DNA from: an uncultured Methanosarcinales archaeon
GTDB taxonomy: Archaea; Nanobdellota; Nanobdellia; Woesearchaeales; WJKV01
Assembly (NCBI GenBank): GCA_964576505.1
Contig: CAZNVD010000005.1
Span: 1 to 46,704 of the forward strand
DNA: 46,704 nucleotides
Reading direction: 5' to 3'
Part shown: positions 1 through 20,953 of the stretch, in pieces
How the letters are laid out: each line of letters opens with the position of its first letter
How positions within the stretch are numbered: position 1 is the stretch's first letter
Translations under genes and position numbers: made by a program
Notes under the pieces: model-generated
Database searches by the model: none
What the model saw: only the letters and a program-made list of their open reading frames with translations
What the model was told of the DNA's origin: nothing

Positions 1-3000
1 AATCTTTGCATCAACATCAGCAACAATCTTTGCCTTATCACTAGTTATCTTAACACTAGTATCAGTCTTTGCCTTCTCATATGCCGCTTTCGCAGTTGTT
101 CCACGCTCTCCACCTAAGACCGCTACAAATTCTTCAAATGTAATTTCTTCTCCCTTCGCAATCTTTTCTTTAAGTTTTTTCGCAGTCTCTTCTTTCTTTG
201 TTGTCTCTTCAACTCTTTCATCTACCTCGGCTTTCTCAGCCCGCATAGTTTCTGCAGCAGCCACAATTTCTTCAGGTGTTTCTTCAAGCTTTTTCGCTTC
301 TTCTTCAAGAGCTTTCTTTTCAGCTTCAATTCGCTCCAGAGCTTTCTTTACATCAGGCAACTTGGAGTAATCCCCTTCTGGAATTCCCTTTGCAAGTTCT
401 TCAACAGTTTTTGCTTCGGCTTCAGTAAATCCTCCTTTCTTAGCAATCTCACCTGCCTTTTCAACAAGAACCTCAGTAACTTTTTCTTTGAAGTGTTCTT
501 TAGCAACAGTCTCAGCAGCTGCTGCAGTAGCCGACGCCTCTTTACGAGCCACAGCTTCAGTTCCAAGATCCTCACTAAATTTCTTTGCAAATCCAACATC
601 TTCTTCTTTTGATTTTCTTTCTTTGCCAATAGCGTCAAAGACCTTTGTGAATCTTTTTTCTTCATACTTTTCCTTTGCCCATTTTCCAATGTCAGGTCCA
701 AGCACATCTGTAAATTCCTTAAGAGGAATATCTTCTCCTTTTGCGACCTTACCAGCCAGCTCTCTTGCTGCATCAATATCCTTTGCGCTTTCTTCTATTC
801 TCTTATCAACTGCAACTTTCTCCGCAGTTAAAGCCTCAGCAACTTTTGCTTCTTTTCTGGATTCATATCCTTTCTCAATTTTTCCTTTTGCACTTTCAAT
901 AGTCCCAACATCTTTTTCAGTAACAGCTTTCCTAAACGCTTCACTCTCAGCACCTTTCAAATTAAGCGAATTTTCAACAGTCTTGATATCTTCGGGGGAC
1001 ACAACTTTTCCCGATTTAATATCAGAAATTATCTTGTCTGCAGCAGCAGTAGCCTTTTCTTTCGAAGCATCATATCTTTCGCTGATTTTTTCTGGCGAAA
1101 GTTCGGCTGACAACTGTGCCTTAATAGTACTTCCAAATTTATCGAGCCTTGCAAAGCTTTCATCTGTCGCCTGCTTAAGTCCATCAAGCAATTCCTCCTT
1201 TTCAAGGCGCGCATCCAACCTCTCAGCTGGTGTTTTTTCAGGATCAGCAATTATATCATCAAGCTCTTTTAATTTAGCATCAGCCAACTCTTTATTCGAT
1301 TTGTAAAATTCAAATTGCACCGCCGTCTTAAGTTCAGCAGCTTCCTTCGTTAACTTATCCAATTCATATTTGTTTCCTTCTGTTGGCTCTAGCCTATAAA
1401 GTTCTTTGGCAATGAAAAGATCGAACTGCTTACTTGATTCACTTAATCTCAATTGAAGATCCTGTTTAAACGAATCAACAAGGTCAAATCCAACTAAAGC
1501 CTCACCACGAGGCTCAAACAGAGCACCTAATACTTCACTCACTTCCTGTTCATACTTCAACTTTTCAACCTTTAACTTAGTCAATCCTTCTTTGGTAAGA
1601 CCACCCGCACCATCACCATAATTTGTTCTTATATCTTCAACAGCCTTTGCTAAGCGAGCCGCCGCTCCTGCTTCCAATCCTGGTTTTGTAGGAACACCAG
1701 ATTCACTGAAAGATCCTTCATACAATTCATTTATTTTTTTGACATAGTCAGCCTCAGATATTTTTCCAGAAACAAATTGATCATACTCTTTACCAGCCTT
1801 CTCAACTGCGCGATCTAAATCTGATTTAGCTAAACTTCCTTCAACTGCGTGTTTTATTTTCAATCCTCCAAGGAAAACAATACTGTCAAGCAAGGCAGTC
1901 ATAGTAAATTCTCCAGTACCAAGCGCAGCTCCTGAACCTACAAACACAATGTTTTCTCCCAAAAAGTTAGCCGTATAAAATGCCCCCCTTGCAATTGACC
2001 CACTTGTACCAGTTAAACCTTTTAGAGCAGGTCCAGAGAGTCCGGTCAAACCAGTATATCCTTGAACTAGAGCAAATTGTATTGCAAGGTGTGCAGTGTG
2101 TTCAGCAAATGCTTCAGCAAAGCCTCCAAGTGATGTAATCTCTCCACTATCAACCATCTTACTAACATCTACATATGCAAATGTGGAAGCTTCCTTGAGA
2201 ATACTTGCCCCTCTGAGCAATGTAGTTTCAGTCAAAAGACCCCGTTCCAACGCCTGTGCAAAAGTAAGTTTCGCTACTTCCTGCGTTGCAACAGTTGCAC
2301 CAGCCTTCACCTCAAATCCAAGAAGAGTTTTACCTAAATTTCCCAAACCAGTAAATGCTTTACCTAAACCAGCAATACCTTGAGGACCTATAGAACCAAG
2401 AAGCACAGGCATAAATTCAAGTAAGTTAGCACCAGCATTTGCAGCAATATTTCCTAAGTAATTATCAAACTTCTCAACACCAAAGTACAAGTATAGTGTA
2501 CTTTGCTTATTCTGTAAACTTACAAAGTCCACATCATTATCAGCGCTCTGCAAGTGATCAGGAAACTCCTGCTTCAATCGACTAATCTCATCAAGAGACT
2601 GTTTGGCAATTCTATCCATCTGAGCTGCAAGTTCGAATACATCTGGTTCATTTGCACCAAACATGCTATCTGCGGCATAGTCTAATCCACGATAAATCAA
2701 ATCTCCAAATACAGTACCCCGCAAGAAATCACGAACACCTTTTAGACCTGAAAACACAATTCCAGCATTATCTCGGTATGTTTCAGCTTCCTTGACTATC
2801 TCTTTTAATTCTTCTTCGTAGCGCACAACCATATTTTTTTCAGCAGTTTTATACAAATTACTACTCCATGAATCTCCTTTGTCATATAGGAATCCAATTA
2901 ACTTGACTGCATCCCGTAATACACTTAGTTGTTCTCTGCTGAAGAAACTGCCATCATCATCAAGAAATCCATTGATTTTTTTCACTTCAGCTTCATACCT

Positions 3001-6000
3001 ATTAATGTCAAATCCGAGAGCAGCCAATCTGTTTAACTCTCCTGACGCAGAGCCAATGTAAGCAGTAGTAAAGTCAGTTCTTCCCGTAAGCTCACGGCCA
3101 AATTGTTCACCAAAGAGAACTTTCTTCAAACTTGGTGGAAGATTATCAACAATACTACCTTCTCCACCAAATGGAGAATCCTTTCCGAACAATCCCACAA
3201 ATTCAGGAATCGAGAGCATTGTTCTTATTTCACCAGTCTTAGGATCAGTAAAGATGAAATCCTTTTTAGTAAATTGTGCAATAAAGAAAATATCTTGCAT
3301 GATTTCTGGCTGCAGCTTTGAGAATTCAGATTGGAGTTGAGTTAATTCTTTCAATACGCTACCTCCGTAACCATATTGTCCATGGCTGTACGCTTTCTCA
3401 ACCTCCTTCTTCAGAAACTCAATTCGCTGTTTAAGACCATCATAATACTCTTTCTTTCCAAATGCAGTAATCATTAGTACTGTTTCCAAGTAAGACTGAA
3501 ATCCAGCTTTATGCTGCTCATATAGTTCTGGAACAGTTACAATATATTTTCCCATAGACAATACATCCTGGCGATTAATCTCAGTACTATATTGTCTACC
3601 AAAGCCCAAGTAAGTTCCGACCATATCGGAAAATAATTCAAGCCCGCCTTCAAGAGACATAATATTTATTGATACAAACTCCCTGTACAATTGAGACATT
3701 GCGTCAAATTGTATACGCTCACCCCTGAATGCACTCCTGAGCGCTTCAAATCTAGCTCGGAGTTGAGCAAGATAATCTACAGTTGAAGCAGCTCTGTACT
3801 GTTTAGCATTTCGTTCAACTACATCCCTATAGGATTTCAAAGTCTTTTCCCATTCTTGCAATTCCAAGACTTTTCCTTGGTTTTTCGCACGCTCGGCCGC
3901 ACGATCTTCGGGTGTTTCATAAAGAACCACTGAACCGACGCCAAGGAGATCTTGTTTTCTTTGTTTGATAAGAGCTAATGCCAGATCAATACGACGTAAT
4001 GCATCTTCAGACACCACACCAGTAAGAACTAAAGTTTGTTGCATATATGATTGCAATACGGCAGACAATGCTCTATAATAAAGAGTGCCTGCATCATCGA
4101 GTGATCCTGAATGAAGCATCGACTCAATATTATTATTTTGTTTTATCAAATCCAGCTTGATTAGGAGGTCTGAACCATACTGAACATAAGCTCTTTTAAT
4201 TTCTGCCATTTCTTTGGAATATTGTTCAATGTCTAACCCAGCATTAAGTCTCTCAGTAAGGGCTGTCATCTTATCTGCCCACTCAGCTTCCTTCTGTCCA
4301 ATCCCTTGATATGTTTGCATATTTCTCAAGAAAGCATTATACTCTGTGTCTCCATGATAAAGCGGGAAATAAGACTTAAGCAATGGACCAAATTGGGCTC
4401 GCAACATACTACCAACCATAGTTCCAGTTTCTTTATCTTGAAGATCCAATGCAGCTACCGCAGTCTCAAATATATTCATTCCTCCTTCAGAAATATACCA
4501 GAAAGTTTTGAATTTGGCTTGACCAGGTGGCCAAGAGAAAGCCAGAACATTTTCATTTCTTGGACCTACCATTAGCTGCATGAGTTTGGCAAAAATCTTA
4601 TTGTAATCACCAACAGCTACCGCAAATCCTTTTTTAGCACTAATGGAAGTATCCTGTCCAAAAATACGATCAACAGTTTGAGCACGGTCACTTTTGCCAT
4701 CAGCTCCGTATATTATTTCAGCAACTGGTGCCGCAGCGTCCTTAATGTTCTTGACATTTGAAAGTACATTATCCTGAATCCATTCAATCATTGAAAATGT
4801 TTGATCTTTTGGAAGGTCTTTAAGCTCAGGATTTTGAGCGCTAAGCAAAGCATCAATCCTTTGTTTTTGATCTTCTGTCAATAATCCAAGTTCACTTTGA
4901 CGTTTAAGCGAATCAAGCAAAATATTCTGGATTTTACTATAGACATCTGGTTCACCTGATTTTTCAGCATTAACAAGTAGTCCATCAGTATACCGTTTCT
5001 CCGCTTTTGTTAAGGCAGCGATTAAATCGGCAGAAGGTCCACCTAAGAGTCCAGTATCTGCCAGATTCATTTTTGTCTCTTTGAGGAAGTCAAGTTCCAG
5101 CTTGCTCTGCTCTAGATTAGTAGACACATCTTGTTTCCACTTTGACTCCAAAAGAGTTGTGACTAGTGCATCATTTTCAGCACTACTTCCAAAGCTGCTC
5201 TTGAATGCTGCAGCATAAAACTCTTGAAGGACAGATTTGTCCTGGTAAATAGCATCACTAGTACCAAATTGAGCGTCGTATTGCTCTGCAAGTTTGGAAG
5301 CTTTTTCCAAATCTTCGAGATTTTGAGTAGTCTGATAGGAATTATACACAGCAGTAATCTGCTTTGCCAAGGCTTGCTCGTCAGGCGGCAATCCACTAGC
5401 TCGGGCACCAAAGATAGCGAACGCGGCAGGGTTATATGCATTACTTTTCTTAACGTCATTCCAGAGATCATACTCGCTCTTTCGAGCAAAGTCTTGATAT
5501 TCTTTTGATAGTGCAGCTGATTTTTGATCAACCATCTTTATCTGATCATCTATAGTCTTTATTTGATCATTAAGCTGGAAGTTCTTATCTGCAACCTCTG
5601 CATTTTTTTCTTGAAGTGAAGTAATTTCAACATTAATCTTAGCAATTTCCTCTTTTATGGTTTCATCAGATAATGCTAGTTTAGAATTAACATCCTTAAG
5701 ACTTTTATCAAATTCTGAAAGCTTCTTTTGATATTCTTCAATGTCTGCCTCTATATCAATAATAAGCTGTTGCTGTTCTTGGTTTCGATTGCTGCCATAA
5801 AGTTTAGTATAGAAATCCAAATTTTCTTGTGATCCTTTCAAATCCGACTCCAAAGAAGCCTTCTTGGATTGAAGATCTTTTTGAATATTTTCATTTACTG
5901 TACGTTCTTTCAAGTTACTTTCAAGAATTCTTTGCTGCTCCGCCAGAATTTGTTCTGTGTTAATATTCTTAAATGTCTCTTCATCTAGTCGAGATTGCAA

Positions 6001-9000
6001 TAACTTCAATTCACTTGCCTCAGAATCAGTTAATGATCGCCCCGTCTTTGTAGCATCCTGATTGATGGCATCAATCTTTGACGCAATCTCATTTATTGTG
6101 GTAAGTCTGCTCTGCAATCGTTCAGCGTACAAAGTATCGCCAAGTTTTTGCGCTCTATCCATTTCTTTTTTCAACCAGTCAGAAGAAATGGCTAATTCCT
6201 TATTTGCGTCTCTAAGTTGACTTTCCAAAGGTTCTTTCAGACCATCTTTCGAACTCAATGCATCCTGTAAAGCTTTTAGATTTTCAGGCGTATTAAACGG
6301 ATCATCTTTCTTGCCTTGTATGTACGCAATGATTTTCTCTGGAGTTGGATCCTTAACATTCAATATCACCTCATTCAACAAAGTCTCATCAATCTTTAGA
6401 TCTTTAGCCAGCTTCGCAATCGCTTGTTTAGCTTCTTCAGTTTTTCCCTCTTTAGTTAGAGCCTGCACACCAGCAATCTTACTTGCTCCACCTGGAGTAC
6501 CAACAAGTTTTTCCTTCTCAGCTTGAGTTTGCTTTGCTGCCTCATTAGCAATCTCGCCTTTAACCTGCCTTTCGTCTGAGTACAACTGCAATGAAGCGGT
6601 ATTCCGTTGATCAATCAAATATTTCATTACATTATGAGGAGTAATGTCTGCTATACCAGGAGGCTCTGTTCTTCCTATTAAATTGAGGAATCCAGTTACA
6701 GTCTCAACAGGAATACCTAATTCTGAAGCCACCTGATTCGCAAATGCATCAGCTTCAGCTGCAAGTTTAGCTCTTTCTTCTGCTGTTTCAGCCTTGGCAG
6801 CATTACTATAGCGTACCCACAACTCATTAAGATCATTACTAAACTGATACAACTGTTGCTGACGCTCTGCCAATGATCTTTCAGGATCAAAGAATAAATC
6901 ATCGATATTATTTTTTATATCCTTATTATCTTCAATGCGTTTTTCCTGTTCAAGTTTCTTAATCTCATCAAGGGCAGATTTAATCTCTGGCGATACAGCT
7001 CCACCTGTGGCAAGATCAGTTCCAGAACCCGCATCAATTGCAGCAAACTTGCCCGATCCGGCAGGACTTTGACAGTAAAGAATTCCAGGTCGCTTACATC
7101 CCACACCAGCCAAAGCTGCGAGGAATTGTCCAAGGTTGGGCCTGCTTGGATTTTTTGAATCTGGATCAATAAAGCCGACGAAAGTTGCTGAGCCAGGGCC
7201 AGTGTATTTATTAGTATCATGCATCTGGAATTTGCCAGTAACAGGGTCAGGCAATATTTCAATTTTACTCTTACAATCATTAAACGCCTGTTGGTTTGCA
7301 ATTGTATCTTCAATTTGTTCACAATTGTTTTTCTTGCGAGTATCATCAAGTCTTTCTTCAACTGGCTTTTCCTGCTTATATGTACCAGCATCAGGCTCCT
7401 TTTCAACAGGAGAGAATTCCGCTACTGATCCGTGATCAGTATAATCAACTTCAACTGAAGTTTCTCCAACTTTCTTTTGAGTTGGACCAGTCGCTCCGAA
7501 GGGCTTTTCAGGAATAGGAAGAGGAGGACAGTCATTTTCCGCGAGATATGCTGCCTGGGCTGCTGGCCCAGATGGTGTTGCAATACCTGCGGCATTCACT
7601 CCTGACCAATCCCATCCCACTGTTGGAGGTGAAATAATCAATCCAAATAGTGCAACATTATTTTCACCCGACCATTGCAGGTGTTCAGCAAGTGATCTTA
7701 TGAATAGTTGATGTAAGTTTGAGCTATCAGCCAAGTATTCAGCATGTTTTCGTAAAAATTGCTTGAAATTATCAGGAGAACTTCTTATGTTAACAGGAGT
7801 TTCGCCATGTACATTTTTAATGTTGGCACTCGACAATTTTATGGAAGCAAAGAAATTTATCAAATTATCTGAGTGTTTCTTAACATGTTCCTTGCCCGTG
7901 CCATCCATTGGTTGTGAAGCTATTGTGAAATCACCGAAAACTTGACCACCTATAGCAGAATTCCATCCATCATAAATTTTCATGATTTCATTATTCTTGT
8001 CAATCATATCTGCCATCAGATTGAATCTGTCCATCAACTTTTGCTCCACCACATTAGCCTTCTCAGCATACTCCTCAGGATTTGTTGATTTTTTAGTCTC
8101 AGAATCAAGTCTAGACTCAGATCCCTGAGCATAGTAATTGTATTGTTCTAAATTATTATACATTCCTGGCAAATTTTCCCTTGATTCAATCATTGCGCGA
8201 GTATAGAAATCATACACTCTCAATTGGAAGTTGAGTAAATCAGCAATTCCTTTTGGTTTTCCACCAAAACACTTATTTAATTCCTTCACTGCATTATGCA
8301 TTTCAAGGAATGCCTTGTAGTCAAGGTTTTCATAAGGTGGCTTAATATTAGATTTTTCAGCAATTTTTGTTATTGCCAATTTAACTGCCTCTTTTCTTTC
8401 CCTTCCTTCCAGCGTAGTACCTGGGAATCTCTCATTAATTCTCTTCTGTAAATTAGACAACTCTTCCCCAATGGAGTCTTCTTCTCTTTGCCATTTTTCT
8501 TGTGCCAATTGATAATTGCTTTTGGCTGCTAAATCATTTAATTTATTGATAGCTTCCTTGCGCATTTTGTCCAACGCAGGCTTATCACGAGCATAAACAT
8601 CTTCTGGTTTAAGTTCAATGTCTTTCCCAGTTTTGTCTTTTCCAGCAAATCTAGAACCTAATTCCTGAGCTTCCTTCAAATAATCCTGATAACTACTACC
8701 CTCAAGAGCTCGTTGAGCGTCTTCTCTTGTCATTTTCCCTAACGCAACTTCTGACTCAACACCTTTCTCAATCTTTTCCATCTGCGACGTGGCTTCTTTG
8801 AAACGATTGTAGTCAGACTTCACACTGTCAAGGTCAAAATCTTTCAGCTTGCCATTAGCAGCCTTATACTGTTCCAATTCAATTCGCTCTTGATTCTCTC
8901 TTTCTTTTTGCCCAATAGCATCCAACTCCTCCTGATATTCATCAGACTTACTCAACTTCTCAGCAAACTCATCAGACTGATCAATTCTTAAAATTAAATT

Positions 9001-12000
9001 CTGCAATCTCTGAATACTACTATACCCTTCTGCCAACTCGTTGTGTTTATCAGACTCTTCACAAAACTTAGTCGGAGGCAACCCCAACCGAGGTCGTAAG
9101 TCTTTAATTATCAGCCCAAGATTATACTCAGTTATTCTCCGCGTCTGACCATTAACCCAAATATTATGCTGTCTATGCGATTCTTCATTTTTATCCTGAC
9201 CTGGCTGGATCATCTGATTAACACAAATGTTAGCTGCACCACCACCAGTACAAACTCCCCCACCCCCCCCAGCCAATTTCCCTTTAGCAGTACGCAACCA
9301 AGTCCCCCATCGTTCTGCGAGAACCCAGTTATAGGATCCTTCATGAATTTCTTTTGGTGTACCCACCCAGTCAAACTGAATTTTACCAATTAGCTCTTCA
9401 ACTGCTTTTACTCCTGATTCACGAGTAGCTTCACCAATACCAACACCCCTCATATGTTCATACCAAAGATCAGTCGTCTTAAACTCATCTCCACCGCCAC
9501 CACCGCCTCCTCCACCAGGCGCATTAACAGCGCCTTCAACAACTTCAATTGTATCAAGTGCAGGATCAGGAAGAGCAACAATCCAAACACTTGGCTGTGA
9601 TGCAAGTTGGTAAAATGATTCTTTGCTTTGAATTTCTTCAGGATTAAATGGCCCCATCAATTCAGCACTCAATCCAGGTATTGGAAGTTGCGGCAGCGAA
9701 GTTTCAAAAGTACCAGGAGTGTTCGAAGGTTCAGGAGGATCCTGATCAAGAGCGAATACATCAGTAATATGAACAGTCTGATAAGGGTTAACTCCTTTTT
9801 CATGGAATTCGCTGAATGCCATCACCAAATCTACCGTACTCGGCGCAAGGAATGAACCAGTATCAAGGCCATCATCAAGAGGATAAGGAGCAGGATGTGG
9901 GAATTGACTTGAATCAGGAACTTCATAATTATCAAATGTGTCTAGTGAACCAATTGCTGGAACTGCAGGCACATTGTAAACACAATCATACTGTAGTCCG
10001 GAATCTCCTACTTCTTGAATCTGATTTTCTGGAATTTGACCAACTCCCTCAAGCAGATCTAAATAATATTCAATCTCAGACATCTTATTTTCAGCAGATC
10101 CAATATCATTAGCAGATTCAGACACACCAACAGCTCCAATTGAATCAAGTACAGATTCAATCTCAGTAATTCTACCTTCTGCACTCACAACATCATCTGC
10201 AATCGCGCCGCCAGACAATGGTACAACTTTTCTGTTAGAAACAGTTTCTAAATCTTTTGATGTAACTGTGGATATTACCTTATTTCTATCCGAGAGATCT
10301 TTAGTTGTCCCTACCGCCGGGTTGATAGCATTCAGACTATCAATTGCATTTGCTGATAATTGTCTACTAGGAATTCCATAAGTCCCATCAAATGTACAAC
10401 CAAGTGGAAGTTGATTCAACATTGCAAATTCAGTATCAGGATCACCTGGAACTCCTGGCTGCTTAGATTCAGAAGCTGCCCTTCCAAAATCAGCAATAGC
10501 TCCAATTGTATCACTCACAGGATTAATAATAGTAGAATAAAGAACATCATTAAGCAGAGAAAGAGCATCTGCAGGGGGTTGTGGAGCAACTGGATTTTGT
10601 TCAGCATAAACACGATCAATCGAGCCAGCTATTCTATTTATGCTTGGTAAACTTTCCGCACCACGTGAATAAGTTGCAAAAATGTCATCATCCAGTTCTT
10701 CCAACAAAGCAATACGTCGGACATAATCACCACTACGTGAAGCACTCAACGCACTGATTCGAGCATCTATTGCATCAAGCAGCGCAAGATAAGAATCGTC
10801 ATAAACATCACCATAGGAATCACTAAACTCCGCTGCTTTTGCTCTACTCAATTCTCCACCATAATCTGCCAGAGAAGCAACTCTTGTTTTATCAGGAGTA
10901 ATAACAAAGCCTCGTGCATCATCACCATAATAAATAATTGAGCTATCTGGCAAGATACCATAACCTGCTTCAGTTAGCTTGGTAAAGTATTCTGCCAATT
11001 TAGCAAGATAATCATCAGAAATAGTTCCATCTTCAATCATATCTGCAATCTCACCAGGTGTGCTCTTCAATACATCAATTCCTTTGCCTTCAGGAGCAAT
11101 CAAGCCTGAAATACGTTTATCAGAAGCCAATTTATCAGCTGATATTGCAATAGGAATTGCAGGAACTGTTGGTTCAACTTTTGGTTCAGGTACTTTCAGT
11201 TTTGGTGATTTCACTGATAATGTCCGAGCCTTTTCAAGTGCAGCATATACATCCTTACTCAAAGCCACAGGAACTCCATCATTCAAATAAGTCAAATATT
11301 TATCAAATAGTTCAAATGACAAAGGTATTTCAGAATAGGCACCTTCAACAGCATCCAAAATGAAATATTCTCCAACATCAACAGAAGGAGACATGTAAGT
11401 TCTAAAGATCTTTCGTTCATCAGTAATTCTTCTATATTCTCCAGCTTTAGAAATAGATAAAATAATTCTCTTAATTGACTCAGGTTGTTTATTCAGTTCA
11501 TTATACGCAGTAAAAGTATTTTCAGGAAGCCCCCCATGTCCTAATTCACTCAATACTGCTCCAGATTCAGAAGCACGTGAAATTTCATCTGAAAGTTCAG
11601 TTGTAAGGCTATCAAGCAATCCACGCTCAGAAACTGTTAGTCGAGGTAGTAGATCTGAAATAAAGTATCCAAATATTTCTCTATCAGAATCAGAAGCATC
11701 ATCACGAAGGAATCTTGTCACAGAAGTAATTGTATCAGCATTCAATGATTCAAGAGCAAGTAAAACAGAAACTTCTTTCTCACCAACAGAAGTCAAAGTT
11801 CTAAGACTGTCAGTTTCAGAATCAGATAAATCTTGTTCACTCAACATGCGAAGAGTAGACAACCTAACAGCTTCCTCAATTTTTGTCGAAGTAATAATAT
11901 TTTTGTCAGCAACTGACACTATATTTTCAAAGACTCTATATGTAAACTCAACTCCCTCACTTACAAACTTCCTTTCGGGCTTCCGTTGTATAAGTAATGC

Positions 12001-15000
12001 TTTAATGGTTTGTTCCTGTCTTCTTGTATCAACAGCACCTTCAAAAATACTGATCTTTTCAATAATTTTCAACAAATCATTCTTGGCTCCATCAGACAAC
12101 TCAACTTTTGCATACTTTGCAAGTAAATCAATTCGTCGCTTAATTGAATTAAGATCACTTTCACTCACGACTGTATCTTGTGCAACTGAAGTTTCAATTG
12201 GTTTAGTAGTAATTGCTTTCTTTTCTGTAACGCTTTTCTTTTTAATAAAAAAATCAAACCAAGCAACTACAGGTTCATAACCTGGTTGTTGCAATAATTC
12301 AGTGCGATCAAGCAAATAATACATGAAAGTCTCAGCAACAAACTCATTGAACAAGGTGTATTGTACAGAAATACGATCTTGTCTAGTCATTCCAAATTCG
12401 CCACCTACAAGCAAGCCTTGCTCCCGAATCAAATTGTACTGTTTTCTCAAAGACTCAATATCTACATCATTTTCTGAAAGGTCTCCTGAATCAACTAGAT
12501 GAATAATTCCATCACCCAATTTCATACCAAAGTAATAAGCTATAGATCGAGCAGTAGTATCATATAAATATGGATTTAAAAGTATTACTCCCTTTCCATA
12601 TTCAGCAATTCTATCATGAGTGTATTCAGCTAAATTAATCTCAGTAATTACAGAAGAACTAAGATACCAACGAGGAACAAGATCAAGCATGTGATCAATC
12701 TGCTTCAACACACTTCCAAAGTTTGGATTTGTTGCAAATCCTTTAGGAAGAACCACACTAATTCCAAATTCAGCAGCATGATCTTTCAATGCCTGTGCAG
12801 CAGAAATAATTTCATCTACGGAGTTGCTTTCAAGCCCCTCAACAACTTTCCATCTATTATATGAGTCATATTCTCGAATAGATACTAAACTTGACTGAAT
12901 TGCGAAAGGATTTCTAATTAAATACTTATCACCTATTTTTTCAACAGAATAACCAGCTCTAAATTGATCAAGCATTTCTGAAGTCAGATAAGGAATTTTT
13001 GCCAGCGTAGATTCTTTATCCCAAGCAAGACCACCAAGATTCTCATAATTACTATCAGCAGTAGCACCCTCTGCAGATGGAAGTATTTCATAACCACTGT
13101 TTTCTTTTTGGTTATTATTTTTTTTGTCATTATTGTCATTAGATTTATGAGTAAAGACAGAATAAATATCAGCGAATGCTGAACCAGTATACGAAATTAA
13201 TCCCTTATTTTCTTCTTGAGGAAGAGGCGTTTCAAATGTTTTCGCAGATACAACCAGATTTGACGATGCTCCACCAACCATCAACGACGAAATATAATCA
13301 GATTTTTCTAAATTTAGAGTTTGACCTTGAACAGTAATTCCACCAGGCTGAGAACCTCGAGTACCAGAAGAGAGAGAAGAAATGTAATTTGATTTAGATT
13401 GCTCCTTCTGGAAAACAGCACCAATTCCAGATGATTGAATTTCCGCTTGTGAATCACTAGCCTGAGTAATTTGATTTTGAAGAGATCCAATAGCTCGATC
13501 ATTCTTATTGTATTCATCAGTTAATCCAACACGTTGAACACCCAAAGCTCCCTGCATACTCTTTATATCACCAAGCAACTGAGTTTTCAATACCTGTGAT
13601 TGACCTTCACTTCCTGCTGAAAGATAATTATAATATTTATCATCTCCTTTTTCTTCTCCAAATGCACCAACAAAGTCATTCCTGCTAACAATATTATCTG
13701 CTTGAATATCTCCGAAGAGTTCAGTTCCTGCAGATATCTGCTTATCTGTGTTAAACAAAGACATTTTAATGCCCTCATTTTTCTGAGTCAACGATTCTTT
13801 GCGTTTACGCGCAGCATACTCAACATAAACGTCATCAATTTTTCCAGACAAAAATTGCAATTCCTTATCAGATAGACCTACTTTTACTCGAACAAGTACA
13901 TCACTTATAGTATCAAATGCCCTCTTCCTCTCATCCCCTGTAAGTTCTAGACGGTCCAATTCTGCATTTATTTCATCCTCAGTAAGATCACCCGCTAACA
14001 ATTTCTGCTTGAATGCAGACTTTGCTTCGTCAGCCGCAAGTTCAGCTCGAATGTCAGCTGCATTTCGCCAGGCAATATTAGCCCGATTCACAACAATATG
14101 AGGTAATCTTCCATATTCAGCTTCAAACTGGGCAGCAGGCACCAAAGATATGATAATTGTCGTTTTTCTATTCAATCGTTCACGATAAGTTGTATCAGGA
14201 GTAACTTGAGCAACATCAGAACCATCAATAATAAATGCAGCTGAGTCAGCAGGAGCATTAGAACTAATAACACCTGTTTGAGAAATACCATCATCAATAA
14301 AGCCAGAGGATTCAGCACTAATCACAGAAGAATCAAGAGCATTCTCTGCAGATCCTTGTCTTGATACGCCTGAAGTTTCTTTTACTAATTGATCTTTATT
14401 ACCAAATGTAGATACTTGATTGTCTTTAGAATCATCTTTGGTAGAAGGAGTTCCAAAGACTCCTGAACTTTCTTTTTCAGCCACCTGAGCACCTGTTATC
14501 AAAGATCCTTCGACCCTAGAGACCTGACCCTCAGGAACATTCAAAGATTCAATATTATCCTGAGAAGGCTTTGAGGTTGGTTTTGACAAAGTAATCAAAT
14601 CTTGTGCAGCAGTACTCTGATCTTCTTCAGTAATCTCACTTAATTTTTTGTTAATTGCACTTCGAAGATCGTTATTGGTTACTGTAATTATCATTTCCTG
14701 TGGAAGGTCAGTTTCTTCTTCAGAATTAGACGATCCACTGCCAGTACGAAGAGCTATTTGAATGTCACCTTCAGGAATAGGAAGCACCTCAACCGGATTC
14801 TGGGGATTAAACACAAGCATCTCAATAAAGTCAGGACCTACTTCAGTAATTGCAGGAAGCACTTGTTCTTCGCCTCCGCCGCCCCCACCTCCACCCCCTT
14901 CTTCATCATCAAGAACACGAAGTGGATCTACAACAGGTACAGCTGAAAATCTATTAGGAATAAGTGGAGTATGCCCTGGATCTCGCACACCATAGTGTAA

Positions 15001-17391
15001 AATAGGAGCAGGGCAAACTATCTGAGATGGGATGAGAATTTTATATGTGTATGACTTCCTAACCCACCTGGCGCAAGGAGGCGGACCACCTTCTACACAA
15101 GCAGCCACATAATAAACCCCCTTCGGAGGATTTCCCAACATTTTCGGGTCCCAAGGAATAGGATTTCCACTGGCAGCAGCATCCTGAAACATTTTCCAAT
15201 AAGTTTCCAGAGGGATCTCACTGCCAGCTGGATACGGAAGAGGTCCTGGGTCACAGAACCAAGGGCGATGAGGAAGTGGACAAACTGGTTTCTTTACAGA
15301 AACTCCTCTGGGTGGAGTTAGATCTGCATCATCAGAAACTCCTCTAATCACCGGCTTATTATCATCAGGACCCAATCTGTAAATTGGTGTGTTGTCTTGA
15401 GTCCATCCAACAGGATCAGCATCAATTCCGTCACCTAGTCTATAAATAGGAATTCCATCCTGAGTAAATCCTACCGGCTTATCATTTATTCCATCTGCCA
15501 ATTTAAAAATAGGAATACCAAGAACCCAATCAATAGGACCAATAAATCCAGCATTCAAATTGAACCCATCTGGACCAATAATCGCAGGAATTTCTCCATC
15601 ATTAGTGAGGATCACATTACAAAAATCAACTGTATTTGTAGTAAGGTAATTTATCTGACCTGGAGTCAACCATTGAGAAAGAGCTTCAGTAGAGACAATG
15701 GCTGGACATACCATTGGAATACTAACAGGACATTCTCCACCTGAATTGAAGCAGTGAATCAATGAATTAACATATGCATTGTAAAATGGAAAGGAATCAG
15801 CTTCCAGAGCTGAGGAAGGAATTCTTACACTGTTTCCACCTTGAGTCAAAGAAATAATGCCATCAGATACAGCGCCTATAGTAACAGGTTGTTCAGGACT
15901 GAATGAAACAGGTACACCATCAAATCCAGTTACTAAAACATCTCCAGTTGGAGATACATCGACATCAAGCAGGAGGTCTGTCTGTTGCCCACTATCAGTG
16001 ATAATCGTAAGAATTCCAGGCGTAGCACTTAAATCAACCAAGCTACCATCAGTAACAGGAATTTCTGATCCATCTGTTGAAGTGAGTATTACTCCAGTAG
16101 GACCTTGGATTGGAGCATCATTAACAAGTTGATTTTCAGGAATCTCAGTTGAAGTAGTCACACCACAAGATGATATACTATAGGTGCAATCAACATTACA
16201 AGACAAAGATCCACTGCTTAAACCACCAGCAATATCACCACAATTTAAACCTGCAAGATCATTACCATCACATTCTTCAGCACCATTTCTAATTCCATCA
16301 CCACATACGGCTACAGCTACAGGAGGCAATGAAACACCACTAAGCCAATCATTAACTAAATTCAATTCATCTGCAGATGGAAGACTAGGATTGCCAGCAA
16401 TAAATCCATTAATAAGAGGCACAGCTTCAGCCAAAGCATCAAAATTAGAAATCTCTTTAGCTTTCTCTTTAGTCAGTTCATTCATAGCATTAAGCCAGTT
16501 TTGCTTAAACACAGGCCCAAATCCAGCTTCATTAGCTACCAAAAGAACCCACAAAATAGAATTCACAAGCCATTGATGCATAGGATTTCCATACACATTC
16601 ATTGGGTGAACAGATTGAAATTCATTGAAAGCACCTTGATCAGCCAAAATTCCTTCAAATTCAACTTTATTCACAAGCGTGTCAAGCTGTACATTCAAAT
16701 TATTCAAATTATTAAGAATAGGAATTAATTTTTGCAGCACTGACTCAACAGAAGGAGGAGTAGAAGCACCACTTCTAAGCTCATCCTGTTTTTTTGCATT
16801 TACTTGATTCATAAAACTATCAATTTGAATATTATTGAGATTTCCATATTCTCCGAGTGGACCACCACTTTCAGAAAAATCACCCACAGCAGCAGAAGTA
16901 ATTGAAGATCCACCTTGAGTCGAACCTCCAATCGATCCCATCATTGCATCAAATTGAGCCTTATAATTCAACTGCATCTGCTGCCAATTTTGAAGGGCAC
17001 CAAACATACTAGGAAGAGCTGCTCCAACTACACCACCATTATTTCCATAATATTCTTGCTCAGCCTGAACAGCAATAGTAAGTTGTTGAATAAGATACAT
17101 TGCCACATTCCAAGCAAAATCAAACTGAGAACTAAATTTACCAATCGAACTCTGAACTGAATTAGTTCCTGGACCTGAAGTTGCCTGTGCACCAGTAATA
17201 CTTACTAAAGAAGAAGATTTAATTGGTTGGTTAGGTTGGTTAGGTTGGTTAGGTTGGTATGGTTGGGTGTAGATAGCCGAGGCATCTTTGTAAGAAATCC
17301 AGAACTGAGAAGAAGCGGCACTAACAGTACTACCAAGCATTAAGATAACTATGAAATATGCACCAAATTTCAAGTACAAATCACGCATCAT
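1..17391 (-). CDS. Giant secreted/surface protein, 3'-partial (at least 5,797 codons in the window; the C-terminus lies beyond position 1)
   Basis: Manual translation of the minus-strand frame from ATG-ATG at 17386-17391 found no in-frame stop down to position 1. The ORF track lists nothing in this frame: every listed minus ORF in 1-17391 ends at a coordinate equal to 2 mod 3. That fits one ORF left open at the window edge and therefore omitted. GAGG lies 6-7 nt upstream of the ATG. The N-terminus MMRDLYLKFGAYFIVILMLGSTVSA looks like a signal peptide or anchor. The translation reads as normal protein throughout. Confidence 0.9.
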   Translation of the reverse strand, partial: MMRDLYLKFGAYFIVILMLGSTVSAASSQFWISYKDASAIYTQPYQPNQPNQPNQPIKSSSLVSITGAQATSGPGTNSVQSSIGKFSSQFDFAWNVAMYLIQQLTIAVQAEQEYYGNNGGVVGAALPSMFGALQNWQQMQLNYKAQFDAMMGSIGGSTQGGSSITSAAVGDFSESGGPLGEYGNLNNIQIDSFMNQVNAKKQDELRSGASTPPSVESVLQKLIPILNNLNNLNVQLDTLVNKVEFEGILADQGAFNEFQSVHPMNVYGNPMHQWLVNSILWVLLVANEAGFGPVFKQNWLNAMNELTKEKAKEISNFDALAEAVPLINGFIAGNPSLPSADELNLVNDWLSGVSLPPVAVAVCGDGIRNGAEECDGNDLAGLNCGDIAGGLSSGSLSCNVDCTYSISSCGVTTSTEIPENQLVNDAPIQGPTGVILTSTDGSEIPVTDGSLVDLSATPGILTIITDSGQQTDLLLDVDVSPTGDVLVTGFDGVPVSFSPEQPVTIGAVSDGIISLTQGGNSVRIPSSALEADSFPFYNAYVNSLIHCFNSGGECPVSIPMVCPAIVSTEALSQWLTPGQINYLTTNTVDFCNVILTNDGEIPAIIGPDGFNLNAGFIGPIDWVLGIPIFKLADGINDKPVGFTQDGIPIYRLGDGIDADPVGWTQDNTPIYRLGPDDNKPVIRGVSDDADLTPPRGVSVKKPVCPLPHRPWFCDPGPLPYPAGSEIPLETYWKMFQDAAASGNPIPWDPKMLGNPPKGVYYVAACVEGGPPPCARWVRKSYTYKILIPSQIVCPAPILHYGVRDPGHTPLIPNRFSAVPVVDPLRVLDDEEGGGGGGGGGEEQVLPAITEVGPDFIEMLVFNPQNPVEVLPIPEGDIQIALRTGSGSSNSEEETDLPQEMIITVTNNDLRSAINKKLSEITEEDQSTAAQDLITLSKPTSKPSQDNIESLNVPEGQVSRVEGSLITGAQVAEKESSGVFGTPSTKDDSKDNQVSTFGNKDQLVKETSGVSRQGSAENALDSSVISAESSGFIDDGISQTGVISSNAPADSAAFIIDGSDVAQVTPDTTYRERLNRKTTIIISLVPAAQFEAEYGRLPHIVVNRANIAWRNAADIRAELAADEAKSAFKQKLLAGDLTEDEINAELDRLELTGDERKRAFDTISDVLVRVKVGLSDKELQFLSGKIDDVYVEYAARKRKESLTQKNEGIKMSLFNTDKQISAGTELFGDIQADNIVSRNDFVGAFGEEKGDDKYYNYLSAGSEGQSQVLKTQLLGDIKSMQGALGVQRVGLTDEYNKNDRAIGSLQNQITQASDSQAEIQSSGIGAVFQKEQSKSNYISSLSSGTRGSQPGGITVQGQTLNLEKSDYISSLMVGGASSNLVVSAKTFETPLPQEENKGLISYTGSAFADIYSVFTHKSNDNNDKKNNNQKENSGYEILPSAEGATADSNYENLGGLAWDKESTLAKIPYLTSEMLDQFRAGYSVEKIGDKYLIRNPFAIQSSLVSIREYDSYNRWKVVEGLESNSVDEIISAAQALKDHAAEFGISVVLPKGFATNPNFGSVLKQIDHMLDLVPRWYLSSSVITEINLAEYTHDRIAEYGKGVILLNPYLYDTTARSIAYYFGMKLGDGIIHLVDSGDLSENDVDIESLRKQYNLIREQGLLVGGEFGMTRQDRISVQYTLFNEFVAETFMYYLLDRTELLQQPGYEPVVAWFDFFIKKKSVTEKKAITTKPIETSVAQDTVVSESDLNSIKRRIDLLAKYAKVELSDGAKNDLLKIIEKISIFEGAVDTRRQEQTIKALLIQRKPERKFVSEGVEFTYRVFENIVSVADKNIITSTKIEEAVRLSTLRMLSEQDLSDSETDSLRTLTSVGEKEVSVLLALESLNADTITSVTRFLRDDASDSDREIFGYFISDLLPRLTVSERGLLDSLTTELSDEISRASESGAVLSELGHGGLPENTFTAYNELNKQPESIKRIILSISKAGEYRRITDERKIFRTYMSPSVDVGEYFILDAVEGAYSEIPLSFELFDKYLTYLNDGVPVALSKDVYAALEKARTLSVKSPKLKVPEPKVEPTVPAIPIAISADKLASDKRISGLIAPEGKGIDVLKSTPGEIADMIEDGTISDDYLAKLAEYFTKLTEAGYGILPDSSIIYYGDDARGFVITPDKTRVASLADYGGELSRAKAAEFSDSYGDVYDDSYLALLDAIDARISALSASRSGDYVRRIALLEELDDDIFATYSRGAESLPSINRIAGSIDRVYAEQNPVAPQPPADALSLLNDVLYSTIINPVSDTIGAIADFGRAASESKQPGVPGDPDTEFAMLNQLPLGCTFDGTYGIPSRQLSANAIDSLNAINPAVGTTKDLSDRNKVISTVTSKDLETVSNRKVVPLSGGAIADDVVSAEGRITEIESVLDSIGAVGVSESANDIGSAENKMSEIEYYLDLLEGVGQIPENQIQEVGDSGLQYDCVYNVPAVPAIGSLDTFDNYEVPDSSQFPHPAPYPLDDGLDTGSFLAPSTVDLVMAFSEFHEKGVNPYQTVHITDVFALDQDPPEPSNTPGTFETSLPQLPIPGLSAELMGPFNPEEIQSKESFYQLASQPSVWIVALPDPALDTIEVVEGAVNAPGGGGGGGGGDEFKTTDLWYEHMRGVGIGEATRESGVKAVEELIGKIQFDWVGTPKEIHEGSYNWVLAERWGTWLRTAKGKLAGGGGGVCTGGGAANICVNQMIQPGQDKNEESHRQHNIWVNGQTRRITEYNLGLIIKDLRPRLGLPPTKFCEESDKHNELAEGYSSIQRLQNLILRIDQSDEFAEKLSKSDEYQEELDAIGQKERENQERIELEQYKAANGKLKDFDLDSVKSDYNRFKEATSQMEKIEKGVESEVALGKMTREDAQRALEGSSYQDYLKEAQELGSRFAGKDKTGKDIELKPEDVYARDKPALDKMRKEAINKLNDLAAKSNYQLAQEKWQREEDSIGEELSNLQKRINERFPGTTLEGRERKEAVKLAITKIAEKSNIKPPYENLDYKAFLEMHNAVKELNKCFGGKPKGIADLLNFQLRVYDFYTRAMIESRENLPGMYNNLEQYNYYAQGSESRLDSETKKSTNPEEYAEKANVVEQKLMDRFNLMADMIDKNNEIMKIYDGWNSAIGGQVFGDFTIASQPMDGTGKEHVKKHSDNLINFFASIKLSSANIKNVHGETPVNIRSSPDNFKQFLRKHAEYLADSSNLHQLFIRSLAEHLQWSGENNVALFGLIISPPTVGWDWSGVNAAGIATPSGPAAQAAYLAENDCPPLPIPEKPFGATGPTQKKVGETSVEVDYTDHGSVAEFSPVEKEPDAGTYKQEKPVEERLDDTRKKNNCEQIEDTIANQQAFNDCKSKIEILPDPVTGKFQMHDTNKYTGPGSATFVGFIDPDSKNPSRPNLGQFLAALAGVGCKRPGILYCQSPAGSGKFAAIDAGSGTDLATGGAVSPEIKSALDEIKKLEQEKRIEDNKDIKNNIDDLFFDPERSLAERQQQLYQFSNDLNELWVRYSNAAKAETAEERAKLAAEADAFANQVASELGIPVETVTGFLNLIGRTEPPGIADITPHNVMKYLIDQRNTASLQLYSDERQVKGEIANEAAKQTQAEKEKLVGTPGGASKIAGVQALTKEGKTEEAKQAIAKLAKDLKIDETLLNEVILNVKDPTPEKIIAYIQGKKDDPFNTPENLKALQDALSSKDGLKEPLESQLRDANKELAISSDWLKKEMDRAQKLGDTLYAERLQSRLTTINEIASKIDAINQDATKTGRSLTDSEASELKLLQSRLDEETFKNINTEQILAEQQRILESNLKERTVNENIQKDLQSKKASLESDLKGSQENLDFYTKLYGSNRNQEQQQLIIDIEADIEEYQKKLSEFDKSLKDVNSKLALSDETIKEEIAKINVEITSLQEKNAEVADKNFQLNDQIKTIDDQIKMVDQKSAALSKEYQDFARKSEYDLWNDVKKSNAYNPAAFAIFGARASGLPPDEQALAKQITAVYNSYQTTQNLEDLEKASKLAEQYDAQFGTSDAIYQDKSVLQEFYAAAFKSSFGSSAENDALVTTLLESKWKQDVSTNLEQSKLELDFLKETKMNLADTGLLGGPSADLIAALTKAEKRYTDGLLVNAEKSGEPDVYSKIQNILLDSLKRQSELGLLTEDQKQRIDALLSAQNPELKDLPKDQTFSMIEWIQDNVLSNVKNIKDAAAPVAEIIYGADGKSDRAQTVDRIFGQDTSISAKKGFAVAVGDYNKIFAKLMQLMVGPRNENVLAFSWPPGQAKFKTFWYISEGGMNIFETAVAALDLQDKETGTMVGSMLRAQFGPLLKSYFPLYHGDTEYNAFLRNMQTYQGIGQKEAEWADKMTALTERLNAGLDIEQYSKEMAEIKRAYVQYGSDLLIKLDLIKQNNNIESMLHSGSLDDAGTLYYRALSAVLQSYMQQTLVLTGVVSEDALRRIDLALALIKQRKQDLLGVGSVVLYETPEDRAAERAKNQGKVLELQEWEKTLKSYRDVVERNAKQYRAASTVDYLAQLRARFEALRSAFRGERIQFDAMSQLYREFVSINIMSLEGGLELFSDMVGTYLGFGRQYSTEINRQDVLSMGKYIVTVPELYEQHKAGFQSYLETVLMITAFGKKEYYDGLKQRIEFLKKEVEKAYSHGQYGYGGSVLKELTQLQSEFSKLQPEIMQDIFFIAQFTKKDFIFTDPKTGEIRTMLSIPEFVGLFGKDSPFGGEGSIVDNLPPSLKKVLFGEQFGRELTGRTDFTTAYIGSASGELNRLAALGFDINRYEAEVKKINGFLDDDGSFFSREQLSVLRDAVKLIGFLYDKGDSWSSNLYKTAEKNMVVRYEEELKEIVKEAETYRDNAGIVFSGLKGVRDFLRGTVFGDLIYRGLDYAADSMFGANEPDVFELAAQMDRIAKQSLDEISRLKQEFPDHLQSADNDVDFVSLQNKQSTLYLYFGVEKFDNYLGNIAANAGANLLEFMPVLLGSIGPQGIAGLGKAFTGLGNLGKTLLGFEVKAGATVATQEVAKLTFAQALERGLLTETTLLRGASILKEASTFAYVDVSKMVDSGEITSLGGFAEAFAEHTAHLAIQFALVQGYTGLTGLSGPALKGLTGTSGSIARGAFYTANFLGENIVFVGSGAALGTGEFTMTALLDSIVFLGGLKIKHAVEGSLAKSDLDRAVEKAGKEYDQFVSGKISEADYVKKINELYEGSFSESGVPTKPGLEAGAAARLAKAVEDIRTNYGDGAGGLTKEGLTKLKVEKLKYEQEVSEVLGALFEPRGEALVGFDLVDSFKQDLQLRLSESSKQFDLFIAKELYRLEPTEGNKYELDKLTKEAAELKTAVQFEFYKSNKELADAKLKELDDIIADPEKTPAERLDARLEKEELLDGLKQATDESFARLDKFGSTIKAQLSAELSPEKISERYDASKEKATAAADKIISDIKSGKVVSPEDIKTVENSLNLKGAESEAFRKAVTEKDVGTIESAKGKIEKGYESRKEAKVAEALTAEKVAVDKRIEESAKDIDAARELAGKVAKGEDIPLKEFTDVLGPDIGKWAKEKYEEKRFTKVFDAIGKERKSKEEDVGFAKKFSEDLGTEAVARKEASATAAAAETVAKEHFKEKVTEVLVEKAGEIAKKGGFTEAEAKTVEELAKGIPEGDYSKLPDVKKALERIEAEKKALEEEAKKLEETPEEIVAAAETMRAEKAEVDERVEETTKKEETAKKLKEKIAKGEEITFEEFVAVLGGERGTTAKAAYEKAKTDTSVKITSDKAKIVADVDAKI
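1870..2420 (-). other. Gly/Ala/Leu-rich hydrophobic segments within the giant protein (about aa 4990-5175)
   Basis: Translation gives FMPVLLGSIGPQGIAGLGKAFTGLGNLGKTLLGF ... GYTGLTGLSGPALKGLTGTSGSIARGAFYTANFLGENIVFVGSGAALGTGEFTMTALLDSIVFLGGL. These small-xxx-small patterns contrast with the charged flanking sequence. Confidence 0.5.
9490..9516 (-). repeat. Second Gly9 tract (NAP-GGGGGGGGG-DEF), about aa 2626-2634
   Basis: Nine consecutive in-frame glycine codons; plus strand reads tcc acc gcc acc acc gcc tcc tcc acc. Confidence 0.95.
14872..14898 (-). repeat. Gly9 tract flanked by acidic residues (DDEE-GGGGGGGGG-EEQ), about aa 832-840
   Basis: Nine consecutive in-frame glycine codons; plus strand reads gcc tcc gcc gcc ccc acc tcc acc ccc. 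Confidence 0.95.
15341..15520 (-). repeat. Three short tandem peptide repeats of the type G(I/T)PI(F/Y)(K/R)L(A/G)DGI(N/D)x(K/D)PVG(F/W)TQD
   Basis: Translation gives GIPIFKLADGINDKPVGFTQD / GIPIYRLGDGIDADPVGWTQD / NTPIYRLGPDDNKPVIRG. Confidence 0.7.
16165..16305 (-). other. Cys-rich module CGDGIRNGAEECDGNDLAGLNCGDIAGGLSSGSLSCNVDCTYSISSC (about aa 363-409 of the giant protein)
   Basis: The C-G-D-G-x5-E-E-C-D-G-N pattern resembles the cysteine-rich repeat family of extracellular proteins (Myxococcus-type CGNG..GEECDDGN repeat). Only a single copy was seen. Confidence 0.55.
17224..17265 (-). repeat. In-frame 9-nt tandem repeat (ttggttagg x3 perfect, plus degenerate flanking copies) encoding QPYQPNQPNQPNQP
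   Basis: Read directly: ttggttagg at 17227-17235, 17236-17244 and 17245-17253, followed by ttggtatgg. Confidence 0.9.
17317..17391 (-). other. N-terminal signal peptide / membrane anchor of the giant protein (MMRDLYLKFGAYFIVILMLGSTVSA)
   Basis: Charged N-region (RD..K), a hydrophobic core and a small-residue VSA motif. It is nearly identical to the N-terminus of the 849-aa ORF at 20707-20781. Confidence 0.75.
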
Positions 17392-17470
17392 TCATCCTCT
17401 TTTTTCAAGTATTTACATTAATACTTTCTACAGACAACTAATTTACCAACCGATTTTTAAAAAACAATAG

Positions 17471-17486
17471 AATATATAAACATATC
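17471..17486 (-). promoter_or_regulatory. TATA-box core (minus strand GATATGTTTATATATT) about 80-90 nt upstream of the giant ORF start
   Basis: The 15-nt core atatataaacatatc occurs three times (17472-17486, 18096-18110, 20860-20874), each upstream of a gene in this cluster. A GAGG Shine-Dalgarno-like motif lies at 17396-17399. Confidence 0.5.
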
Positions 17487-18086: not shown

Positions 18087-18186
18087 GGCAAAAACATATA
18101 TAAACATATCTCTTCTGTAAAAGCACATTATTTACTTTTAGAAATCAGAATATCCTCGATAATTAATAATAAAAAATAATAATCAC
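18087..18186. repeat. Intergenic promoter block, copy A (about 100 bp, repeated at 20851-20953)
   Basis: Hand alignment: ..aacatatataaacatatctcttctgtaaaagcacattatttacttttagaaatcagaatatcctcgataattaataataaaaaa.. against ..aacaatatataaacatatctcttctagaaagaaagcttttttacttctaaaaaaaatagaatctcctcgataattaataataaaaaaa.. Confidence 0.85.
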
Positions 18187-20850: not shown

Positions 20851-20953
20851 AGCAAAACAATATATAAACATATCTCTTCTAGAAAGAAAGCTTTTTTACT
20901 TCTAAAAAAAATAGAATCTCCTCGATAATTAATAATAAAAAAACATTACACCA
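20851..20953. repeat. Intergenic promoter block, copy B (includes the TATA core at 20859-20874)
   Basis: See copy A. Here the block lies about 80 nt upstream of the 849-aa ORF start. Confidence 0.85.

Follow-up and report, generated by a model that had tools for sequence, protein, structure and literature searches.

A 46,704-nucleotide stretch of DNA from an uncultured archaeon placed in the Woesearchaeales (contig CAZNVD010000005.1 of assembly GCA_964576505.1; hereafter the window) carries at its left end a minus-strand gene of at least 5,797 codons. The product, which we call the giant, has a predicted signal peptide and does not contain a single sequon for N-glycosylation. We read this complete absence as the probable footprint of selection against glycosylation, with residues 1 to ~5000 lying outside the cell and being kept bare. 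At about an even chance, we favour reading the giant as a jointed surface fibre, mostly helical and free of glycans, that leaves the cell by the Sec pathway and makes contact with another cell.

Ultra-small episymbiotic archaea are believed to hold and exploit their hosts mainly by means of giant surface genes. To our knowledge almost nothing is known of how giant surface proteins work, and those described are built from recognisable adhesion repeats. The protein reported here differs in kind, being non-repetitive, lacking relatives in billions of sequences and stripped of N-glycosylation sites. The absence of sequons would provide, from sequence alone, a readout both of topology (the chain is outside the cell) and of a functional constraint (the chain stays bare). 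Should such a purge prove general, it would provide a new and simple way to pick out proteins of cell-to-cell interaction in archaea that have not been cultivated. The purge, the leader and promoter held in common with upstream genes, and a degenerate HExxH-family domain are additions to the original prediction, which was made by a model from the letters of the same DNA.

The giant reading frame and its missing sequons

The minus-strand frame that begins with ATG-ATG at 17386-17391, directly preceded by an in-frame TGA, runs through 5,797 codons without a stop and is still open at position 1 (1..17391, minus strand; residues 1-5797), so that its 3' end lies beyond the window. From the base composition of the strand a stop is expected in 7.2% of codons, giving P ~ 1e-188 for an open run of this length; over the same span the two remaining frames of that strand hold 294 and 808 stops. 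Recomputation thus upheld the original prediction of an open reading frame (ORF) of this size that had been missing from the ORF track. The program that made the track skips it because it runs off the end of the window, and the ORFs of at least 80 residues in 1-17391 (14 of 14) are all on the plus strand or in another minus-strand frame, as had been claimed.

The gene resembles its surroundings. Its relative synonymous codon usage matches that of twelve neighbouring genes with r = 0.97 (0.88-0.95 for the separate thirds of the gene), and GC content at third codon positions is 0.26 against 0.27 in the neighbours; the gene is therefore native, with no compositional sign of a chimeric join. A foreign or mobile origin was considered and is ruled out by the native codon usage together with the housekeeping genes that flank it. 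About 80 nt 5' of the start is a TATA-box-like promoter 15-mer, GATATGTTTATATAT, which contains a TTTATATA box (17472..17486, minus strand), followed by a GAGG ribosome-binding motif (17396-17399, minus strand). By these sequence measures one native gene, equipped with its own promoter, encodes the giant, an acidic chain of at least 635 kDa (pI 4.8) whose signal peptide looks cleavable.

The giant has 263 Asn residues and 0 N-x-S/T sequons (x not Pro). In 300 shuffled versions of the protein the count was 32.4 ± 5.2 and never fell below 20, and the Poisson probability of finding none is 8e-15. The deficit is highly specific and is seen for both hydroxyl residues: Thr never occurs at +2 from Asn (13.8 expected) and Ser does so only twice (20.4 expected), both times as N-P-S, which oligosaccharyltransferases do not use. 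There is no comparable deficit of Ser/Thr at the other offsets from -3 to +4 from Asn, Ser/Thr at +2 from Asp, Gln, Glu or Lys occur as often as expected, and two out-of-frame translations of the same DNA contain 24 and 32 sequons. The sequons expected of the giant are spread over each 500-residue block up to ~5000.

In archaea, N-glycans are attached at N-x-S/T by AglB, which works at the outer face of the membrane. As AglB acts only on that face, the purge indicates that residues 1 to ~5000 are extracytoplasmic. The cytoplasmic proteins of the window are not depleted (22 sequons observed, 14.6 expected). In four smaller proteins of the window, p849, p214, p133 and p136, there is 1 sequon where 6.8 are expected; with p550 and p234 added, these exported or anchored proteins together have 4 against 10.6 (P = 0.02). 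Two orphan proteins encoded at 25130-25774 and 39227-40879 (minus strand) have lipoprotein-like leaders ending in Cys (…VVLSAC and …LLAGC). The first has 0 sequons where 2.1 are expected and the second 1 where 2.5 are expected, a hint that sequon depletion may reach other exported proteins of this organism.

The purge also bears on whether the ORF is real. Given that the gene runs off the window and that the sole other assembly found with this organism is fragmented (a 3-kb ENA contig), one might suspect a chimera of assembly, or an ORF that is decaying or not expressed. However, the open frame is far beyond chance, codon usage is uniform in all thirds, promoter and ribosome-binding motif are intact, and a protein-level purge extending over each block to ~5000 would scarcely arise by joining unrelated pieces or in a gene that is dead. 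We consider an artefact extremely improbable; the purge itself argues strongly that the ORF is translated and has evolved as a single unit.

In the literature searched we found no report of a comparable sequon purge in archaeal proteins. The closest precedent is the argument, reportedly made by Bushkin and colleagues in 2010 (cited in PMC7826898), for selection against N-glycan sequons in the secretory proteins of the apicomplexans Plasmodium and Toxoplasma. The likeness lies in a statistical deficit of N-x-S/T in proteins that pass an oligosaccharyltransferase, read as negative selection. However, the apicomplexan case concerns a eukaryotic endoplasmic reticulum and a proteome-wide trend, and ours an archaeon and an absolute purge in one gene.

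Three further features of Asn usage were noted. Asn-Gly, the dipeptide most prone to deamidation, is 3.4-fold depleted in the giant (6 against 20.3 expected; cytoplasmic proteins, 12 against 10.2), perhaps for no other reason than its helical content. N-x-C occurs more often than expected (5 against 1.2), with all five occurrences between residues 2721 and 3373. Residues 5501-5797 (window 1-891) contain no Asn at all across 297 residues.

Leader, common promoter and module layout

Residues 1-25 of the giant (17317..17391, minus strand) form a Sec-type signal peptide, recognised by its hydropathy and by its similarity to the leader of p849. The sequence, MMRDLYLK then FGAYFIVILMLG then STVSA/AS (slash, predicted cut), has a positive n-region, a hydrophobic core and a VSA/A site, and is the sole segment of the giant with a Kyte-Doolittle value above 1.5 (1.74); the 5,770 residues past it do not reach transmembrane-level hydropathy. 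Judged from this leader, the product is exported via the Sec pathway.

The promoter 15-mer occurs in three identical copies in the window (17472-17486, 18096-18110 and 20860-20874, all minus strand), which stand ahead of the giant, p136 and p849, respectively, ~20 to 95 nt upstream of each gene; only 0.24 matches would be expected in the window even with two mismatches allowed. The giant and p849 (18232..20781, minus strand), an acidic exported protein with zero sequons, also have the end of the 5' untranslated region in common, and their leader peptides are 68% identical over 28 residues. Directly upstream of the giant, p136 (17665..18075, minus strand) is a small, N-terminally anchored protein with six conserved Cys. 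Judged by these common elements, the genes for the giant, p136 and p849 resemble a single regulon whose products are exported. The upstream regions of p136 and p849 have a further duplicated stretch in common (TTATTATTAATTATCGAGGA.ATTCT). A paralogue of p136 with 46% identity, p133 (22267-22668, minus strand), likewise has an N-terminal anchor and the six conserved Cys; neither protein falls in a Pfam family. A search of 5.8 billion proteins recovered nothing related beyond p136 itself, and a scan of JGI metagenomes with the p136/p133 alignment was likewise without a relative. p136 is recorded on one NCBI contig of 59,219 bp, which leaves 12.5 kb of the source contig outside the window.

The long helical and coiled-coil-like regions described below could suggest a cytoplasmic cytoskeletal or SMC-like coiled-coil protein that happens to have a hydrophobic N-terminus. 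Against this, the N-terminus has all three parts of a leader and is common to the exported p849, Cys-rich modules occur solely towards the N-terminus, and a sequon purge would have no rationale in the cytoplasm, where the neighbouring proteins are not purged. We give such an interpretation hardly any weight.

Past the leader the giant is, as read from its sequence, a non-repetitive string of unrelated modules, with two Gly9 hinges and disordered acidic linkers in between. The mosaic features of the original prediction (signal peptide, QPN repeat, Cys module, PIY repeats, two Gly9 runs, Gly-rich segments and K/E/A tail) were all found again; window coordinates below are on the minus strand. A QPY-(QPN)3-QP micro-repeat (residues 43-56; 17224..17265; seen by TRF at 17225-17266) is followed by an N-terminal domain (residues ~60-345; 16357..17214) that would be helical, as assigned by DSSP on a low-confidence AF2 model. 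The Cys-rich, disulfide-type module CGDG..EECDGND..C..C..C..C (residues 363-409; 16165..16305) opens with C363-G-D-G...E-E-C374-D. It gives a sub-threshold match to Pfam DUF4215 (PF13948; 14.7 bits, E 0.039, cutoff 27), and the NCBIfam scan was silent here; compared with DUF4215 or Myxococcus-type Cys-rich repeat proteins, the giant carries one sub-cutoff copy resembling the repeat. Residues 420-800 are S/T-rich and then form a putative Cys/Pro-rich beta region (547-800), within which three short PIY/PIF repeats resembling beta-hairpins (residues ~620-675; 15367..15534) were picked out from the sequence and appear as strands in the low-confidence AF2 model.

The first Gly9 hinge (residues 832-840; 14872..14898) leads into an acidic S/T-rich linker (841-1095) and a Pro-free helical stretch (1098-1350), after which comes the HExxH-family domain (residues 1463-1697; 12301..13005) considered in the next section. 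The second hinge (residues 2626-2634; 9490..9516) directly precedes a Trp-rich domain with a Gly5 loop (2635-2800). Both hinges are exact runs of nine Gly; because both use mixed GGN codons they must be kept as protein sequence, and a slippage-prone origin is ruled out on the same ground. Coiled-coil-like stretches occupy residues 2800-4000 and are strongest at 3722-3978 (5458..6228), the longest heptad-compatible stretch by a home-made heuristic, where a Pro-free run of 266 residues underlies the call. A helical-looking domain (4000-4980), Gly-rich and moderately hydrophobic segments (residues ~4985-5180; 1852..2439; Gly 15%) and, by composition, a K/E/A-rich helical tail (residues 5200-5797; 1..1794) complete the visible chain. 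The tail holds the sole internal repeat, 5518-5577 and 5713-5772 (48% identity, 195 residues apart); self-comparison revealed no tandem domain repeats, in which the giant departs from most giant adhesins. All Cys residues (26 of 26) fall within 363-793 and 2332-3440.

The Gly-rich segments were considered as transmembrane helices and rejected: their 19-residue hydropathy peaks at 1.17-1.28, and the maximum of 1.28 is below the transmembrane range (signal peptide, 1.74). They could nonetheless matter in another way. If the giant were a released or injected effector or translocator, its chain being threaded through or inserted into the envelope of a partner cell after Sec export, the Gly-rich amphipathic region 4985-5180 could be the membrane-active element, and sequons would have been purged since a bulky glycan blocks a second translocation. 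It fits this idea that the purge is total, and more pronounced in the giant (0/32) than across the remaining exported proteins (4/10.6); that these ~200 residues are Gly-rich and moderately hydrophobic, not true transmembrane helices; and that no anchor is visible in 5,797 residues. The argued sequon selection in apicomplexan secretory proteins offers an analogy. Nanohaloarchaeal giants have, moreover, been reinterpreted as secretion 'straws' (PMC10266531). However, the giant shows no homology to a toxin, pore-former or secretion component in Pfam, PDB, PHROGs, NCBIfam or PADLOC, threading a chain of >635 kDa is mechanistically demanding, and the hydrophobicity of the Gly-rich region is low. 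We regard an effector as unlikely.

A wider form of the same idea, that a complete purge marks export substrates kept glycan-free for a second passage and that the giant is a megadalton, jointed, helical conduit or effector threaded into or through the partner envelope, seems to us distinctly unlikely. Were it true, sequon-free composition could locate inter-cellular proteins across DPANN genomes.

Relatives, known giants and the surface-fibre reading

We ran an exhaustive phmmer search with residues 1440-2639 (1,200 of the 5,797) against 1.84 billion cluster representatives. It returned no orthologue and two matches, P0001 (315 residues, E 1.6e-7) and P0002 (481 residues, E 2e-4). Both align at residues 1463-1697, over ~235 residues and with 24-26% identity. 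In the homologous column both have HELGH and the giant has MKLGD; no HExxH motif occurs anywhere in its 5,797 residues. Because of this replacement, and of the missing motif elsewhere, we call the domain catalytically dead. It is, from these alignments, a dead copy of a putative zincin-like family, and is itself unable to bind zinc via HExxH.

P0001 and P0002 resemble the giant over this domain alone. Unlike it they are free-standing, have no signal peptide and keep HELGH. P0002 is encoded on an archaeal contig, adjoining the genes for ribosomal proteins S19e and L31e, and P0001 gives a weak match to Pfam DUF6055. An AF2 model of the giant's domain from a three-sequence alignment had pLDDT 61 and pTM 0.60, with a best PDB match by Foldseek at E 0.47, and a PDB sequence search with a profile of the domain was empty. 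P0002 has an extra N-terminus of ~200 coiled-coil residues. The two free-standing HELGH proteins are encoded at 6001-7446 of contig L082 (Logan SRR22387819) and 222-1169 of contig L083 (GCA_964399255.1), and belong to an unnamed family without a Pfam model.

Searches elsewhere in the giant were empty or nearly so. Pfam was scanned with both halves (E<=0.1), with residues 1-352 and 400-residue tiles of 401-3600 (E<=10) and with tiles of 3601-5797 (E<=1), and gave nothing above noise. NCBIfam and PADLOC scans were empty, PHROGs gave one marginal coiled-coil match (E 8e-4), and a PDB sequence search with both halves found no matches. Nor did tblastn yield any, whether with both halves against 50,697 phage records or with the C-terminal half against 72,556 plasmid records. 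A pattern scan of JGI metagenomes with residues 4700-5250 and one of IMG/VR found no relative. A word-indexed search of 5.8 billion proteins with residues 1-2700 and 4200-5200 yielded none among the best 8,000 candidates, which is a weak negative.

By these searches the giant is essentially an orphan. The original prediction that its domain content is largely undescribed fits with the near-empty profile libraries and with the exhaustive search of 1440-2639, and the Pfam tiles, which might have revealed a known adhesin or S-layer family, gave none. The claim of more than 3,000 globular-looking residues with no recognised catalytic motif holds as regards the motif, no HExxH being present; it needs amending in that this sequence is not wholly relative-free, since residues 1463-1697 match a small archaeal HExxH-motif family.

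We compared the giant with several classes of protein. The original prediction had offered the SPEARE proteins as an example. The SPEARE-type giants of nanohaloarchaea (Hamm et al. 2019) were re-analysed in PMC10266531, which describes tandem Ig-like/fibronectin-like domains, C-terminal transmembrane helices and an ATPase of VirB4/TraG-like type, with another VirB4 gene lying downstream. The giant is like them in coming from a DPANN archaeon, in being the product of one gene with thousands of codons, and in its N-terminal Sec signal peptide (residues 1-25), huge acidic ectodomain, coiled-coil content and presumed surface role. It also differs. Neither the Pfam halves and tiles nor self-comparison revealed tandem Ig-like/fibronectin-like domains, and the visible 5,797 residues revealed no ATPase domain, two Walker-A-like strings being put down to chance; the window ends before the C-terminus and the downstream gene. 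With no Ig-like, adhesion or ATPase domain in the visible part and no sequence similarity shown, nothing links the giant to SPEARE.

Archaeal huge proteins of at least 5,000 residues in UniProt, among them halomucin, are rare and mostly of no known function, and almost all carry Laminin_G_3, then Big_3_5 and similar beta domains (PMC11573180). The giant matches this class in size but not in these domains; the Pfam halves and tiles gave no match to Laminin_G_3 or the Concanavalin clan. Nanoarchaeota-type episymbiont surface proteins are like the giant in having signal peptides and mostly lacking sequence relatives outside DPANN, yet they are of 0.9-1.3 thousand residues, rich in Ig-like or beta-helix folds and provided with 13-52 predicted N-glycosylation sites, where the giant is of at least 5.8 thousand residues, largely helical and without sites. 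Similarity to phage or mobile-element giants, such as tape measure or polyvalent proteins, is likewise absent, with the PHROGs match marginal (E 8e-4), the phage, plasmid (C-terminal half) and IMG/VR searches empty and the flanks chromosomal. By sequence, the giant is not a member of any known family.

A last class, S-layer and other N-glycosylated envelope proteins, brings in a further alternative, in which the giant is the archaeon's own envelope or matrix protein (an S-layer-associated scaffold, a sheath, or a tether among its own population) with no specific role towards a host. The giant could serve in this way, as an acidic exported chain of great length with much coiled-coil-like sequence, apparently co-expressed with two further exported proteins from the common 15-mer. 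However, S-layer and envelope proteins of archaea are as a rule beta-rich and carry heavy N-glycosylation (bioRxiv 10.1101/2023.10.27.564410), and the giant is helical and sequon-free. It has 0 sequons where 32 are expected in place of the multiple sequons of that class, and no Pfam match to Ig/PKD-type folds. Relatives in sister lineages are the rule for core envelope proteins, and for the giant none was found by the word-indexed searches (residues 1-2700 and 4200-5200) or the exhaustive one (1440-2639). An envelope role of this kind is, in our view, quite improbable.

Under the surface-fibre reading, the giant chain would leave the cell via the Sec pathway and its leader would be cut at VSA/A. 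The Gly9 hinges and disordered linkers would then separate the modules of a mostly helical fibre, in which the N-terminal Cys-rich/beta-rich head and the dead-enzyme domain might serve as binding modules for the other cell. The fibre could be held to its own cell either by the C-terminal part beyond the window or by the co-regulated p849 and p136. A bare chain may be needed to pack into coiled coils, or to cross or insert into the partner envelope. The shape of the fibre, its anchoring and its contact with a partner are what we infer from the features above. There is precedent, in that both AglB and surface proteins of large or giant size are known from DPANN genomes (bioRxiv 10.1101/2023.10.27.564410; PMC10266531); in the cultivated ones, which have aglB, surface proteins carry 13-52 predicted sites (bioRxiv 10.1101/2023.10.27.564410).

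Several points weigh against this reading. Typical DPANN surface proteins are beta-rich with many sequons, the opposite of the giant (bioRxiv 10.1101/2023.10.27.564410). The purge can be read as we propose if, as we presume, this genome encodes AglB, and the last ~800 residues have too few Asn for the topology argument. No anchor is present in the visible 5,797 residues, the C-terminus being beyond position 1. An AF2 model of residues 28-830 made without an alignment was unusable (pLDDT 36.6), leaving module boundaries unconfirmed. The Pfam halves and tiles detected no adhesion domain of any known type, and the searches found no relative that could show conservation or co-occurrence with a host. 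Of the original prediction of a cell-surface or host-interaction protein, export therefore stands, by leader and topology; host interaction was drawn from lifestyle, with no domain behind it.

Remaining features of the window

The remainder of the window encodes archaeal housekeeping proteins, namely FttA/aCPSF1, a proteasome beta subunit, FEN1, Trm5, a DRG GTPase, an SFM1-like methyltransferase, AlkD and GyrB, together with a glycosyltransferase, an AI-2E transporter, Fic and two PIN/AbrB toxin-antitoxin pairs. Searches of the window for tRNA and Rfam RNA found none. GyrB is closest (64%) to a Nanoarchaeota metagenome-assembled genome, with Woesearchaeota and Micrarchaeota metagenome-assembled genomes also matched. 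These affinities, the GC content of 37% and the archaeal neighbours fit a DPANN-type archaeon, which upholds that part of the original prediction.

A flexible-island-like stretch (21122-26545) separates the giant-gene cluster from the housekeeping genes. It contains Fic (21122-22072, plus strand), a PIN gene with a MazE/AbrB-type antitoxin (22704-23374, minus strand), a second pair of antitoxin and PIN_3 (25845-26545, plus strand), and two orphan ORFs, one for p343 and one for p214, which has a lipobox. The 3-kb contig of ENA assembly ERZ27284378, which carries FttA, is 100% identical to 26139-29205 and stops inside the second PIN gene.

Nearly all genes of the window are on the minus strand. 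GC skew of the plus strand is negative in each 2-kb bin (-0.08 to -0.35), and the cumulative curve declines throughout the 46.7 kb without turning. Finally, two orphan ORFs of 226 and 324 residues at 29395-30922 (minus strand) overlap by 128 nt (29948-30075), which may reflect a mis-called start or a frameshifted gene.

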